Source: an uncultured Bifidobacterium sp.
Lineage (GTDB): Bacteria; Verrucomicrobiota; Verrucomicrobiia; Limisphaerales; JADLHS01
DNA: 64,000 nt
NCBI GenBank assembly: GCA_964553795.1
Contig: CAZKMR010000001.1
Coordinates: 19,230-83,229 of the forward strand
Reading direction: 5' to 3'
Position numbers and translations under genes: made by a program. Below, one piece after another: positions 19,597 through 54,363 of this stretch. The first letter of the stretch is position 1. Every line of letters begins with the position of its first letter. A model generated the notes under the pieces. It saw only the letters and a list, made by a program, of their open reading frames with translations. It searched no databases and was not told where the DNA came from.

Positions 19597-19763
19597 GTAG
19601 CGGCGGGCATCTTGTCTGCCGTAGAGCCGGGCTTCGAGCCCGGCGGTTAAAACGAAATCACGACGGTAGCGGTCAAAGAACGCGGAAGTTATCGGTCAAT
19701 CGGTCGTCTATTCCGGGCGGCAAGATGCCGCCCTCTACGTCAGGCGCGGACGCCTGACGCTAC
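19597..19763. repeat. Array of GTAG-plus-hairpin (REP-like) units in inverted orientation
   Basis: The left side reads GTAGC[GGCGGGC ATCTTG TCTGCC]GTAGA[GCCGGGC TTCG AGCCCGGC]. The right side, read as reverse complement, is GTAGC[GTCAGGCG TCCG CGCCTGAC]GTAGA[GGGCGGC ATCTT GCCGCCC]. Confidence 0.6.
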
Positions 19764-22296: not shown

Positions 22297-22370
22297 CGGA
22301 GCGTGGCTCTATGAGCCGCAGCACGTCTCTTTGCAAATCGGGCCGCTGCGGGTCACAGACCCGCGCTCCG
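22297..22370. repeat. Nested-hairpin inverted repeat, GGAGCG-frame family
   Basis: CGGAGCGTGG-CTC-TAT-GAG-CCGCAGC ... GCTGCGG-GTC-ACA-GAC-CCGCGCTCCG. The frame matches the elements at 50040-50148 and 52459-52568. Confidence 0.65.
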
Positions 22371-49534: not shown

Positions 49535-50992
49535 ATGCCTCTTCCCGATTTGATCGAAATCATCCCGCTCGACGAGCCCGTGCGCGCGGAGATCACCGTG
49601 CCTGGTTCGAAGAGCATCACGAATCGCGCGCTCATTCTCGCGGCGCTGGCGGATGGTGAAGTGACGTTGACGGGCGCGCTGTGGAGTGAGGATACGCAGG
49701 TGATGACCGAGGCGTTGCGAACGCTCGGATTCGACGTGCGCGTGGAGAATGATCCGGCGGAGTTTTGTAATCGGACGATTACGGTCAAAGGGCAGGGCGG
49801 ACGGATTCCCAAAGCAGGCACGGCGGAAAAGCCGCTGGAGCTGTTTGTGGGCAATGCGGGTACAGCAGCGCGGTTTCTGGCGGCGCTGGTTTGTTTGGGC
49901 AACGGCGTGTATCGGTTGAGCGGCGTGCCGCGGATGCACGAACGTCCGCAGGCGGAATTGTTCAAGGCGTTGCGCGAACTTGGCTATCGCGTGGAGACAC
50001 CGAACGAAAAGTTGCCGGCAGTGATTTTTGGCGAAGCGCCGGAGCGCGGCTCTGTGAGCCGCAGCGATTCGGCCACGCCGGAGGCTTCCATTGATTCTGG
50101 ACGTGAAAAAGCTGACGAGAGCGCTGCGGGTCGCAGACCCGCGCTCCGGAAGCGCAGTTGCACCGTCAGCATTTCGGAAAGCTCGCAATTTGCCTCGGCG
50201 CTGTTGCTCGCGGCGAAGCATGGTGGATGGGAAGTGAAGATTGCCGGTGATGATGACGAGGAAGCGCCGTATGTAGTAATGACCCAACGATTGATCGAAT
50301 CGTTTCCCAAACGTGGAGGTCGTTTTCAGATTGAGCCGGATGCATCCAGCGGCAGTTATTTTTGGGGCGCGGGCTGGTTGGTTACAGTGAAATGGTGGCT
50401 GGGTGCTCCGGTTGAGGAACTAGGTCCGGAGGGTTCGCCGATTTGGGTAAAGGCGTGGCCGAAATCTGGCTGGCAAATTGATGCGGCATTTCCCGATTTC
50501 CAGCCTTGGCCGGAAAGTATTTCGCGTGAAGGTCAGTTGGCTGACAGCATCATGACTGCGGTGGTGTTGGTCGCAGACCGGGAAAGTGCAGTTGATTGTT
50601 ATCTTGAGCCTCGTGCGGAGATGAAATTCACCGAACTTGGCCGGTTGCGCGTGCAGGAATGTGAGCGCGTCGTTGCTTTGCGCACGGAGTTGACCAAGTG
50701 CGGAGCAAAAGTGGTTGAAGAAGGCGACACGTTGACGGTTTACCCCTCCGATCTGCACGGCGCGGAGATCGAGACCTACAACGATCATCGCATGGCCATG
50801 TGTTTTGCGATTCTGGGATTGAAAGTGCCGGGGATAAAAATCAAGAATCCCGCGTGCGTGAAGAAGACGTTCCCCAATTTTTTCCAGAAACTCGCCGCGC
50901 CGCCACCCAATGGATTGGGCGTGGAGATTTGGGAAATTAAGGACGCCCAACGGACACGGAAATTGGAAGGTGAAGATTTGTTTGCGGACTGA
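49535..50992 (+). CDS. aroA: 3-phosphoshikimate 1-carboxyvinyltransferase (EPSP synthase) with an in-frame repeat-derived insert
   Basis: PGSKSITNRALILAALA, LFVGNAGTAARFL, MHERP, SSQFASALLL, DHRMAMCFAILGL and VKKTFPNFF. The start is ATG 49535. Confidence 0.9.
   Translation: MPLPDLIEIIPLDEPVRAEITVPGSKSITNRALILAALADGEVTLTGALWSEDTQVMTEALRTLGFDVRVENDPAEFCNRTITVKGQGGRIPKAGTAEKPLELFVGNAGTAARFLAALVCLGNGVYRLSGVPRMHERPQAELFKALRELGYRVETPNEKLPAVIFGEAPERGSVSRSDSATPEASIDSGREKADESAAGRRPALRKRSCTVSISESSQFASALLLAAKHGGWEVKIAGDDDEEAPYVVMTQRLIESFPKRGGRFQIEPDASSGSYFWGAGWLVTVKWWLGAPVEELGPEGSPIWVKAWPKSGWQIDAAFPDFQPWPESISREGQLADSIMTAVVLVADRESAVDCYLEPRAEMKFTELGRLRVQECERVVALRTELTKCGAKVVEEGDTLTVYPSDLHGAEIETYNDHRMAMCFAILGLKVPGIKIKNPACVKKTFPNFFQKLAAPPPNGLGVEIWEIKDAQRTRKLEGEDLFAD
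50040..50148. repeat. Nested-hairpin inverted repeat (GGAGCG-frame family) inside the aroA ORF
   Basis: CGGAGCGCGG-CTC-TGT-GAG-CCGCAGCG (left) ... CGCTGCGG-GTC-GCA-GAC-CCGCGCTCCG (right). The arms are near-identical to those at 22297-22370. Confidence 0.7.
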
Positions 50993-51092: not shown

Positions 51093-51749
51093 GTGAAGAA
51101 GCATCCCATCGTCATTGCTATTGATGGCACGAGCGCGAGCGGCAAGAGCACCAACGCCAAGTTGGTCGCCAAGGCGCTCGGTTTTGTTTACGTGGACACC
51201 GGCGCGATGTATCGCACGCTGGCGTGGCATTGCCTGTCCAATCGCATTGATTTTCACGATGCGAAAGCGGTGGCGACGGCGTGTCGCAAATGGAAAACCA
51301 AACTCGAATGCGTGGACGCCAAAGTGCGCCTCACGGTGGATGGCTATTTTCCGGAAAAGGAAATTCGCACGGCGGAAGTGAGCGTGGCGGTGTCGATGAT
51401 TGCCGCCGTGCCGAAGGTGCGCGAGTGGATGAAGAAAACGCAGCGCGAATGCATTCAATTCGGCAATCTGGTGATGGAGGGGCGCGACATCGGCACGAAT
51501 GTTTTTCCCGAGACGGACTACAAATATTACCTCGACGCGCATCTTGAAGAGCGCACGAAACGTCGTGTGGCCGAAGGTGTGAATGAAAATCTCGCCGCGC
51601 GCGATCAACGTGACAGTCAACGCGCCGCCGCGCCGTTGATGATCGCGTTGGGGGCGAAGGTGATTAACAACTCGAACATGACGAGCGAGCAGACGAGCGG
51701 GTTGTTGATAAAGGATATTCAGGAACGGTTGAAAGCCGACGGACGATGA
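51093..51749 (+). CDS. cmk: Cytidylate kinase
   Basis: IAIDGTSASGKST P-loop, YVDTGAMYR and GRDIGT. GTG start. Confidence 0.9.
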   Translation: MKKHPIVIAIDGTSASGKSTNAKLVAKALGFVYVDTGAMYRTLAWHCLSNRIDFHDAKAVATACRKWKTKLECVDAKVRLTVDGYFPEKEIRTAEVSVAVSMIAAVPKVREWMKKTQRECIQFGNLVMEGRDIGTNVFPETDYKYYLDAHLEERTKRRVAEGVNENLAARDQRDSQRAAAPLMIALGAKVINNSNMTSEQTSGLLIKDIQERLKADGR

Positions 51750-52399
51750 ACCCCGTTTATTACTGCGGCTGGCGCTTCTTTCGCACGGCGTACAAAGTTT
51801 ATTGTCGCGCCGAGTGGTTCAATGCCGAGCGCGTGCCAAAATCTGGTCCGGTCATCCTGGCCTCTAATCACGCCAGCATCATTGATCCGCCGCTGGTGGG
51901 CACCGGCCTGGAGCGCGGCATTAGTTATCTGGCGCGGGAATCGTTGTTTCGCTTTCCAGGCATTGGTTGGTTGTTGCGCAATTGGGACGCAGTGCCGGTG
52001 GACCGCGACGGTGGCGGTGCGAAGGGATTGAAAATCATTCTGGATCGCTTGCTAGGAGGCGCTGGGATCATTTTGTTTCCCGAAGGAACGCGGACGTTAG
52101 ACGGCAAACTTCAGCCCGCGCGTTCCGGGATTGGTTTAACCGTGATCAAGTCCAACGCGCCGGTAGTGCCGGTGCGGGTGTTTGGGACATTCGAAGCTTT
52201 TGGCAAAGAGGCGAAATTTCCCAAGCCACACAAAATCGCGGCCAAGTACGGGAAGCCGATGGATTTTGCGGCGTTGCGCGCGGAGGCAAAAACGTGTTCC
52301 AAGGCGCGGCTCAAAGAAATTTATCAGGAAGTCGCGGACGAAATCATGCGGCAGATCGCCAAGCTCGAGCCGTGCGTAGATAAAGACACTTTTCCGTAA
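51746..52399 (+). CDS. plsC: 1-acyl-sn-glycerol-3-phosphate acyltransferase
   Basis: NHASIIDP (HX4D) and FPEGTR motifs. An ATGA overlap joins it to cmk. Confidence 0.85.
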   Translation: MNPVYYCGWRFFRTAYKVYCRAEWFNAERVPKSGPVILASNHASIIDPPLVGTGLERGISYLARESLFRFPGIGWLLRNWDAVPVDRDGGGAKGLKIILDRLLGGAGIILFPEGTRTLDGKLQPARSGIGLTVIKSNAPVVPVRVFGTFEAFGKEAKFPKPHKIAAKYGKPMDFAALRAEAKTCSKARLKEIYQEVADEIMRQIAKLEPCVDKDTFP

Positions 52400-52458
52400 G
52401 GCCTCGGCGAGTAAACGGGTGTGATTAAAAGTGGGTGAGGCGCGGCGCAGATCATTGT

Positions 52459-52568
52459 GGAGCGCGGACGGTCTCCGTCCGCAGCGCGCCGCCAGCACGA
52501 CCCGCAACGAATTTGTCCGAGCCACCTTTTCCTGTCCCTGCGCTGCGAGCGGGGACCGCTCGCGCTCC
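52459..52568. repeat. Nested-hairpin inverted repeat (GGAGCG-frame family), intergenic
   Basis: GGAGCGCGG-ACGG-TCT-CCGT-CCGCAGCG ... CGCTGCG-AGCGG-GGA-CCGCT-CGCGCTCC. The outer frame matches the aroA and 22297 copies, but the inner stems differ. Confidence 0.6.
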
Positions 52569-52663
52569 AGCAGATCCCGACACTCACTTTTAATTGCATC
52601 CCACCACAACAGTCTTCAAGGAAATGTATTTTCCAATCGGATGGCGGTTCGTAAGCTACGCCG

Positions 52664-53866
52664 GTGTCTGAAGCGAAAGCACAATCCAATCTAGTCGAGC
52701 CAAGCGTGTCTCCGTCCCGTTCGCTGCCAATCTTGGGCATTGTCGGTGGCGGACAACTTGCCAAGATGATTGCGCAAGCGGCGCGGCAACTCGGCTGCGA
52801 CGTTGCGGTGCTCGAACGCCAGGCTCATAGCCCGGCAGCGGACCTCACCACGCATCACATCGTCGGCGATTGGGATGATCCCGAAACCTTGATTGAGCTG
52901 GGGAAAGTTTCCGATGTCGTGACGTTGGAAAACGAATTTGTCTCCGCAGATAGTCTGGCGGCGCTGGAGCGGGCCGGGCATGCGTTGTGGCCCACGGCGG
53001 CGAACATTCGCGTGGTGCAGGACAAGCTGACGCAGAAGCAGGCGTTCGTGGACGCCGGTCTGCCCGTGCCGCGTTTCATGGCGGTGGCGAATCAGGCTGA
53101 GGTGGCCGCTGCCGCTGAAAAGCTTGGCTGGCCGTTGCTGCTGAAGAAGCGGCGTTGCGGTTATGACGGCAAAGGCAATTTTACCGTGCGCTCGACGGCG
53201 GACATTGAAACCGCGTGGCAGCAACTCGGCGGTGACAGCAATGAGCTTTATGTCGAGGAGTTCTGCCGGTTCACGGCGGAACTAGCCATTATGATCACGC
53301 GCGGGCGCGACGGCACGAGCGTGAGTTATCCCCTCGTGGAAACGATTCAGCGTGATCACATTTGTCACGTCGTCAAAGCACCGGCGGCAGTTTCGCCGGG
53401 CATTGCCGCAATTGCGGCGGACATTGCGCAACGCGCGGTCGCTGCGGTGAACGGCGTTGGCAGCGTGGGCGTGGAAATGTTTCTCACCGCCGACCGCAAC
53501 ATTTTGATCAATGAAATGGCCCCGCGCGTGCACAACTCAGGTCATTACACCATTGAAGCGTGCGCGTGTTCGCAGTTTGAAAATCACGTTCGGGCGGTGA
53601 TGGGATGGCCGTTGGGTTCGCCGGCACTGCGCGCGCCCGCGGCGGTGATGGTGAATTTGCTGGGTGCGGCGAAAGGCTCGGGCAATCCGCATGGAATGAG
53701 CGCCGCGTTACGAGTTGCCGGTGCCAGCGTTCACGTTTACGGTAAAACTTCCAGTTCGCCCGGGCGCAAGATGGGACACATCACCGCGTTGGGCGAGACG
53801 ATGGAACAGGCGTTGGAAAGCGCACAGGCCGCGACGGCAGCGATTCGTTTTGGAGGAACAAATTGA
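52664..53866 (+). CDS. purK: N5-carboxyaminoimidazole ribonucleotide synthase
   Basis: [13 protein letters not shown], an ATP-grasp fold ([21 protein letters not shown]) and [12 protein letters not shown]. The start is uncertain: GTG 52664 or GTG 52706. Confidence 0.85.
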
Positions 53867-54363
53867 AAGCGAAAGCAACTCAACCACTGGTCGGCATCAT
53901 CATGGGCAGCGATTCGGATTGGCCGACGATGAAAGCGGCCGCTGATATCTGCGAGCAGTTTGGCGTGCCGCACGAGGTGCGCGTGGTTTCGGCGCATCGC
54001 ACACCGGATGACATGGCGCGCTATGGTCGCACGGCGCACAAACGTGGTTTGCGCGTGGTGATTGCAGGCGCGGGTGGCGCGGCGCATTTACCGGGAATGA
54101 TTGCGAGCCACACGCCGTTGCCGGTGGTCGGAGTGCCGGTGGAGAGCAAGGCGCTGAAGGGCATGGACTCGTTGTTATCCATTGCGCAAATGCCGGCTGG
54201 CGTCCCGGTGGCGACAGTGGCGATTGGTAACGGTCGCAACGCAGGGCTGTTGGCGGTGGAGATTCTCGGCACGAGCGACGCGGCGTTGCAGAAAAAACTG
54301 CTGGCGTACAAAGCGCAGATGGCAAAGGAATCGCGGGCCAAGAATAAAAATCTGGCGCGTTAA
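53863..54363 (+). CDS. purE: N5-CAIR mutase
   Basis: [21 protein letters not shown] and [17 protein letters not shown] start overlaps the purK stop. Confidence 0.93.

Follow-up and report, generated by a model that had tools for sequence, protein, structure and literature searches.

What kind of element keeps its ends fixed while the letters of its stems vary freely, provided that they still pair? The question is raised by a GC-rich stretch between plsC and purK, at positions 52459-52568 of the window (the whole 64-kb stretch of DNA analysed here, to which all coordinates refer unless a locus is named). We examined this copy, its relatives in the window, and the family that its frame defines in other genomes. 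We propose that the element is probably a copy of a non-autonomous palindromic repeat family of the REP/REPIN kind, whose arms are read as single-stranded DNA hairpins.

Anatomy of the plsC-purK copy and its relatives in the window

The element at 52459-52568 consists of two inverted 28-nt arms with a 54-nt gap between them, each arm following the layout GGAGCGCG-[stem-loop]-CGCAGCG (Table 1). The original prediction had read this stretch as a family member between plsC and purK that has the same outer frame as copies in aroA and at 22297, and inner stems that differ yet remain self-complementary; both statements hold in the sequence. In the left arm the conserved frame is combined with an 8-bp local stem, a 3-nt loop and two extra frame pairs flanking a bulged A. 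The right arm, which reads CGCTGCG-AGCGG-GGA-CCGCT-CGCGCTCC on the plus strand, has the same frame around a different self-paired stem. Repeat detection returned two local 8-bp stems with 100% complementarity and a 30-nt arm-to-arm inverted repeat with 83%. Folded singly as single-stranded DNA, the arms of the window reached -9.8 to -12.3 kcal/mol (z about -2.8 to -3.6), and the degenerate arm at 22298 reached -6.8 kcal/mol (z -2.6). Because the fold adds two frame pairs (GC/GC) around the bulged A, what had been called a frame is partly the base of the stem.

Table 1 Features of the plsC-purK locus and the other dimers of the window
Feature	Coordinates	Strand	Description
Left arm	52459..52486	+	GGAGCGCG GACGG TCT CCGTC CGCAGCG; pairing layout GGA-GC-GCGGACGG-TCT-CCGTCCGC-A-GC-G; CM 31.2 bits; -12.0 kcal/mol, z -3.6
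Spacer	52487..52540		54 nt
Right arm	52541..52568	-	GGAGCGCG-AGCGG-TCC-CCGCT-CGCAGCG; CM 27.6 bits; -12.3 kcal/mol
Outer inverted repeat, left half	52417..52440	+	GGGTGTGATTAAAAGTGGGTGAGG; encloses dimer
Outer inverted repeat, right half	52578..52601	-	CACTCACTTTTAATTGCATCC region; composite unit of ~185 bp with left half
Upstream gene, PlsC-type acyltransferase	51746..52399	+	PF01553
Downstream gene, PurK	52664..53866	+	PF02222 (ATP-grasp) and PF17769 (PurK_C)
Second dimer	50041..50147	+	In frame within aroA (ORF 49535-50992); encodes ERGSVSRSD...AAGRRPALR, surface loop
Third dimer	22298..22369	+	20-nt spacer variant, left arm degenerate; between GH88-like gene and GDSL lipase gene

The dimer lies between two genes of the same strand, and the plsC stop is 59 nt upstream of the dimer and 17 nt upstream of the outer repeat. 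We found no terminator-like site in 52300-52750, where there is no T run and the arm tail is AGCG. No Rfam family matched at gathering thresholds anywhere in the window, and below threshold the matches were to long-hairpin models only (E 0.02-0.8). In three relatives (L121, L325 and L326) another gene stands 3' of plsC, so there is no orthologous empty site for the plsC-purK copy. In a metagenome relative (L298, 19-2944), a RAYT gene and REPs lie between purK and the next gene; the window counterpart of this interrupted site is 53291-54344, where the two genes overlap at 53863-53866.

The pattern GGAGCGCG-N8-20-CGCAGCG matched five times in the window, compared with 0.00 times in 100 shuffles, and a sixth, slightly degenerate arm (GGAGCGTG...CGCAGCA) is present at 22298-22323. 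We also made a covariance model from arms of the family and searched the 64 kb with filters off, which gave six arms only, paired as three dimers. In the aroA copy at 50041-50147 the two arms differ by GGCTC/GAGCC against GGGTC/GACCC, a compensated swap that had been noticed in the original reading and is real. Elsewhere in the window, at 19621-19763, there is a cluster of GTAG-tagged hairpins with GGTT tails that follow the grammar of the REPs flanking RAYT genes in the phylum, which indicates that the source genome has both repeat families.

Stem covariation in a family collected by its frame

By its AroA homologues the window belongs to Verrucomicrobiota. We collected the family by scanning one genome per species with the frame letters alone fixed (GGAGCGCG-N10-14-CGCAGCG-N46-76-CGCGCTCC), and the sample consists of 8-kb blocks around the exact-frame matches. 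The scan demanded the exact frame at both ends, so the conservation of the searched frame letters is not measurable from this sample. About 100 of at least 120 loci were Verrucomicrobiota MAGs (Limisphaerales, Pedosphaera and similar). Copies with true hairpins also occurred among the matches listed in Acidobacteriota (L151, L154, L158, L201, L213, L218 and L239, including the complete chromosome OY970352.1), indicating that the frame family crosses phylum boundaries. Another 17 loci among the matches listed, from other GC-rich phyla, are chance matches in which the hairpins are absent, and they were used as an internal control. Several MAGs contributed 3-7 copy-bearing blocks each, among the matches listed. 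Some element-bearing MAGs are titled Klebsiella, Bifidobacterium or Bifidobacteriaceae (L131, L146, L148, L149, L153, L169, L176, L181, L187, L195, L215, L216, L220 and L221); they look verrucomicrobial by content, and the titles are probably wrong. On viral contigs a 15-base half-element pattern gave chance matches only, among those listed, and the 23-base full-frame pattern, which we adopted, gave one true copy in 2.9 million contigs. A short-spacer true copy (L327, 6437-6524) lies on a 30-kb IMG/VR 'viral' contig, perhaps a prophage or a bacterial fragment that was classified wrongly.

The arm interiors were left free by the search, and the pairing within them could be analysed in 137 arms among the matches listed. 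All four outer interior pairs were Watson-Crick in 116 of these 137 arms, compared with 1.7 from shuffled interiors, 16.6 when the 3' halves were swapped between arms, and none of the 17 arms from chance loci. The inner frame of the second arm, not demanded by the search, had 0 or 1 mismatch in 114 of the same 137 arms. In an ungapped MAFFT alignment of the arms with an 11-nt interior (n = 70 among the matches listed), 98.0% of cells were paired compared with 77.9% in shuffles, and 89 cells had changed on both sides compared with 28. The covariation score of this class was 0.521 against 0.146, none of 500 shuffles scoring as high, and partners that had been slid paired in just 28-53%. Arms with a 13-nt interior (n = 43 among the matches listed) gave 99.4% of cells paired against 80.2% and a covariation score of 0.538 against 0.160, again with none of 500 shuffles as high; over both classes the slid controls paired in 25-53%. 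Stem complementarity is far better than GC-rich chance would give, which supports the original prediction of a recognised structure rather than neutral decay.

Four stem positions vary, with three or four pair types each, and the three basal pairs are invariant, as is the closing G-C pair in the 13-nt-interior class. More than 90% of arms (among the matches listed) have T as the first base of the loop. The family contains at least 37 different stems among the matches listed, and a single MAG may hold 3-7 different stems among 6-11 arms. Where both arms of an element are perfect, the two stems are unlike in 59 cases and like in 20 (among the matches listed), so that it is the local hairpin which is preserved and not the long one between the arms. 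The orthologous aroA copies of the window and L121 have the same arm stems, whereas their spacers differ by many changes, which argues for selection acting on the arms. The common layout is an inverted pair of 26-28-nt arms separated by a spacer of ~54 nt. The constant parts of an arm are its 5' tag, (C)GGAGC, its stem base, GCG/CGC, and its 3' tail, A-GC-G, which contributes two further pairs around a bulged A. Above the stem base come 4-5 bp of stem top, free in sequence as long as they pair, and a short T-first loop (TCC, TCT, TGT or TGC).

G-U cells were almost absent (~3 of 726), nearly all changes led from one Watson-Crick pair to another, and one-sided changes numbered ~0 to 1 per pair. 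The scarcity of G-U fits pairing at the DNA level and, with the dearth of one-sided changes, is not what RNA helices usually show when point mutation drives their evolution. This bears on the possibility that the arms work chiefly at the RNA level (for example as hairpins that stabilise intercistronic mRNA or serve in attenuation or processing) and that the covariation reflects selection on RNA folding, which we consider unlikely. E. coli REPs protect upstream messages, and the position of the 52459 copy, shortly past the stop of plsC and between genes of one strand, and its stable local hairpins would suit such a role. Secondary roles of this sort are known for REPs (PMC3733652). However, the dimer reads alike on both strands, has no T-run terminator and belongs to no Rfam family at threshold; ~10% of copies are translated within genes, and folding alone leaves the conserved unpaired tag and tail unexplained.

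The copied unit, its landing sites and the AroA loop

Among the matches listed, standard dimers (n = 78) have a modal gap of 54 nt, and there are a few short-spacer variants (17-50 nt). The spacer is held at a length of 52-56 nt, is slightly A/T-richer at its centre and is poorly conserved in sequence across MAGs. Within a MAG, alignment extends beyond the GC-rich frame: spacers of same-MAG copies are 92-98% identical, and the flanks are unalignable beyond a short outer repeat. Near-identical spacers at loci with unalignable flanks indicate that the whole dimer is the copied unit.

Nesting in an outer inverted repeat, as in the plsC-purK copy, was found in 16 of 106 elements (among the matches listed), compared with 1% expected. 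The sequence GGGTGTGATTAAAAGTGGGTGAGG is common to the window copy and to one in another MAG (L240, 332-515), which has the same inner stems in a different gene context; the repeated unit at the plsC-purK site is thus probably 52417-52601. This outer sequence is a conserved repeat in its own right: an inverted pair of GGGTGTGATTAAAAGTGGGTGAGG surrounds a GGAGC dimer in the window, in L240 and in L307 (770-953), and it surrounds unrelated sequence in L143 (5998-6131); in L244 (3813-3836) a single copy is followed by a GTAG REP. The outer repeat is either a preferred insertion target or the outer layer of a composite element.

The insert in aroA adds ~35-36 residues at a loop position. Among AroA orthologues of 74-86% identity, this loop is empty (P0004, P0005 and others; DNA in L325, 59-1411), contains a GGAGC element (window, P0002, P0008, P0010, P0012, P0013 and P0095; DNA in L121, 6001-7449, and L155, 690-796), or contains a GTAG-tagged REP dimer (P0003 and others; DNA in L326, 120-1541, GTAGCAGCCGAC...GTCCGCTGCTAC). 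The loop peptides are ERGSVSRS...AAGHRPALR for the GGAGC element and RGNEAQTE...SLLTSAAT for the GTAG REP dimer. One AroA surface loop is, then, a recurrent landing site. Deep positions in long ORFs, with coding-like GC3 on both sides, were found for 10 of 109 elements (among the matches listed), the aroA copy of the window being one more; the remaining copies mostly appear intergenic by crude gene calls. Pfam placed copies within or between domains of HypF (Kae1-like), an SNF2 helicase, a YfhO-like membrane protein and a DUF7133-HEAT-cytochrome c protein, in the last of these in the linker. In most elements, 3-6 of the six reading frames stay open throughout. In-frame gene copies include L140 (807-914), L214 (4965-5068), L170 (815-921), L239 (3754-3855) and L232 (3320-3429), and a radical SAM/DUF4080 protein is also among the genes with an in-frame family copy.

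A spacer of held length and largely free sequence with a central A/T-richer patch, and the recurrence of the same frame in two phyla, would also suit host-domesticated protein-binding sites of a BIME-like kind (for gyrase, IHF or a nucleoid protein), kept for chromosome organisation, with the 54-nt spacing set by the geometry of the bound protein. We regard this as distinctly improbable. Near-identical copies at loci of one MAG with unalignable flanks show recent copying, the element is present at the aroA site in some orthologues and missing in others, insertions that lie in frame within HypF, SNF2 and AroA make poor candidates for organised binding sites, and short-spacer variants exist. Protein binding is nevertheless compatible with mobility and could be a secondary role.

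Another alternative is that the perfect stems are a mutational by-product of quasi-palindrome correction, in which template switching in a hairpin at replication restores pairing, with no structure recognition needed. Changes from Watson-Crick to Watson-Crick pairs with almost no intermediates are exactly what one-step templated correction predicts. As an account of the element we nonetheless find it very unlikely, because it leaves unexplained the recurrence of the non-palindromic GGAGC, bulged A and tail in ~100 MAGs of two phyla (among the matches listed), the T-first loop, and the unchanged stems beside diverged spacers in orthologous aroA copies. Such correction may well be the source of the variation, not the reason for the persistence of the element.

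There was no family-wide excess of flanking direct repeats over the control in 108 elements among the matches listed: 84 had no flanking direct repeat of at least 4 nt, and the control gave the same distribution. Nor did we find a conserved insertion target tetranucleotide; beyond the frame, position -1 (C, 73%) alone was conserved. Both long dimers of the window have 7-nt direct repeats near their ends, GCAGATC (52447-52453 and 52570-52576) and GAAGCGC (50033-50039 and 50149-50155). Direct repeats of this length occurred in none of 106 copies elsewhere (among the matches listed), and GAAGCGC resembles the frame itself. As target-site duplications they were rejected, being no family feature, with GAAGCGC missing in the L121 aroA ortholog; at the two window copies they are probably coincidental or local. 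The size of ~107 bp, the ends resembling terminal inverted repeats and these 7-nt repeats might recall a MITE that arose by deletion from a DDE-transposase insertion sequence, with GGAGCGCG-hairpin ends as its terminal inverted repeats, but the distribution of direct repeats, the L121 ortholog, the lack of a parent element with a transposase between such ends in the sampled loci and an internal hairpin grammar that is that of REPs make this highly implausible.

Kinship with REP elements and the candidate enzyme

The original prediction had raised an association with a transposase or nuclease family, and here a link could not be shown. We searched the genome loci with phmmer and two Y1 transposase sequences as queries, which returned one RAYT (L146, PF01797) and one IS200-like gene in a chance locus; jackhmmer added no further Y1 transposase in these loci. 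The L146 RAYT, whose homologues are abundant in the phylum and annotated RayT, has GTAG-tagged hairpins on its flanks instead of GGAGC arms. We also examined 80 metagenome RAYT loci (298 kb) that sample one clade at 59% identity or more. They contained 248 GTAG-tagged hairpins, with the grammar GTAG + [C/G/A]GCAG + three variable pairs + T(T)CC loop + complement + GGTT, and six GGAGC arms, fewer per kb than the window. Neither in the 8-kb genome loci nor in the 80 metagenome RAYT loci of this clade did GGAGC arms flank a RAYT or any other gene for a transposase, and all-against-all clustering of the ORFs in the 8-kb blocks gave large housekeeping proteins only and no small family as a recurrent neighbour. 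In the loci examined a GTAG tag never preceded a GCGG-type stem, so that the GTAG and GGAGC families are discrete; since they do not intergrade, one shared enzyme is not supported.

The two families nevertheless have a common design: a tag, a fixed stem base, a free stem top, a T-first loop and a fixed tail. Aligned by hand, a RAYT-flanking REP of L260 (GTAGCGCAGACATTCCTGTCTGCG) and a GGAGC arm of L151 (GGAGCGCGGACATTCCTGTCCGCAGCG) agree at 21 of 27 positions. By this common design the GGAGC family is a sister of a proven RAYT-associated family. In L260 (401-452) and L261 (1363-1414), two GGAGC arms stand end to end, CGCGCTCC directly followed by GGAGCGCG, the reverse of the usual dimer. They adjoin a GTAG REP dimer upstream of a RAYT, are the only GGAGC pair near a RAYT in the loci sampled, and could be the junction of two elements or a circle-junction relic.

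We compared the family with known systems. Like REP, REPIN and BIME sequences, GGAGC arms are imperfect palindromes of 26-28 nt, one end of which bears a conserved tag of 4 nt; they form inverted dimers, many with unlike arms, fall into complementary-stem subfamilies, have a T-first, pyrimidine-rich loop, and are inserted without target-site duplication. Their copies are dispersed and, with three dimers in the 64 kb of the window and 3-7 copy-bearing blocks in several MAGs, may also be numerous per genome. Di Nocera et al. described REP families with GTAG or CGTC tags, complementary-stem subfamilies and a preference for unlike-arm dimers, and suggested that having unlike arms protects a dimer from the SbcCD-type removal that befalls long palindromes (PMC3733652). 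The GGAGC family differs in its tag, GGAG plus an unpaired C instead of GTAG or CGTC, although it is analogous in position and role. Relative to the GTAG REPs, its tail is AGCG with a bulged A instead of GGTT, and its stem base is GCG instead of SGCAG. A RAYT flanked by the same repeats would be expected of a REP/REPIN system, whereas the RAYT loci sampled (one clade) carry GTAG REPs; and the family appears not to be strictly extragenic, about one in ten GGAGC copies lying inside coding sequence by crude gene calls.

In this last respect the family resembles Rickettsia palindromic elements (RPEs) and Coxiella QMITEs (PMC5896051), which are palindromic repeats of ~100 bp largely free of stop codons: GGAGC copies are in frame in conserved genes (AroA, HypF and an SNF2-family helicase) and add a loop of ~35 residues. 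Unlike RPEs, most GGAGC copies are intergenic, and the paired tagged-hairpin layout is REP-like. We know of no sequence resemblance between the GGAGC family and RPEs. Integron attC sites likewise have short conserved boxes around a variable palindromic centre and are recognised as a folded single strand with extrahelical bases; however, they form cassette arrays beside an integrase gene (intI) and fold as one long hairpin, whereas GGAGC elements occur as single copies dispersed among housekeeping genes, with arms that fold independently. The subterminal hairpins of IS200/IS605 are also imperfect, contain a bulged base, have short guide or tag sequences beside them, and are read on single-stranded DNA by a Y1 transposase that inserts without duplication, but the GGAGC dimer has no transposase gene between its arms, its ends are alike, and it has no conserved target tetranucleotide. 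None of the papers searched described the repeat, the string GGAGCGCGG matching unrelated primer sequences only, and the family is not included in RepRanger or in the GTAG/CGTC survey (PMC3733652).

The GGAG-tagged family thus looks like an undescribed member or relative of REP/REPIN elements, not a new kind of system; the covariation is exceptionally clean, but what is seen belongs to a known class. We consider it very likely that the plsC-purK element is a REPIN-like copied repeat. Its anatomy, covariation, dispersal, lack of duplications and unit of copying, and its presence or absence at one orthologous site, can be read from the sequences themselves, and from them we infer both a mobilising enzyme and a single-stranded DNA step. 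In the mechanism that we propose, a protein would read the arms as single-stranded DNA hairpins, contacting the tag, the bulge and the loop and needing the stem merely as a helix, and the whole dimer would be copied to new sites without target-site duplication. The likeliest agent would be a HUH tyrosine (Y1) transposase of the RAYT type acting in trans, and we put the chances of RAYT-type mobilisation at about even. Copies without the frame or the pairing would stop spreading, which would leave the frame conserved across phyla and let the stems drift by compensated changes, and unlike stems in the two arms would weaken a long hairpin or cruciform that would otherwise destabilise the locus. 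A mechanism with no RAYT dependence appears quite unlikely to us: another hairpin-specific enzyme, common to Verrucomicrobiota and Acidobacteriota, would recognise the elements by tag, bulged A and loop, and the stem top would be actively diversified (e.g., by hairpin-templated repair) or would serve as an address that distinguishes copies.

For annotation, these repeats matter because they are common in Verrucomicrobiota MAGs, break assemblies, yield spurious ORFs (ERGSVSRS..., AAGHRPALR) and lengthen real proteins such as AroA, HypF and SNF2 helicases, and recognising them improves annotation. More than 35 stems in one fixed frame separate the sequence-demanding from the structure-only parts of a REP-like hairpin, and the collection is a ready substrate set for RAYT-type enzymes. 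If the family is an ordinary RAYT/REPIN system, as seems most likely, it extends a known class and opens no new one. If instead the RAYT-independent reading were true, the family would represent a distinct class of mobile or regulatory DNA element, read by structure and free in sequence, that also adds loops to proteins.
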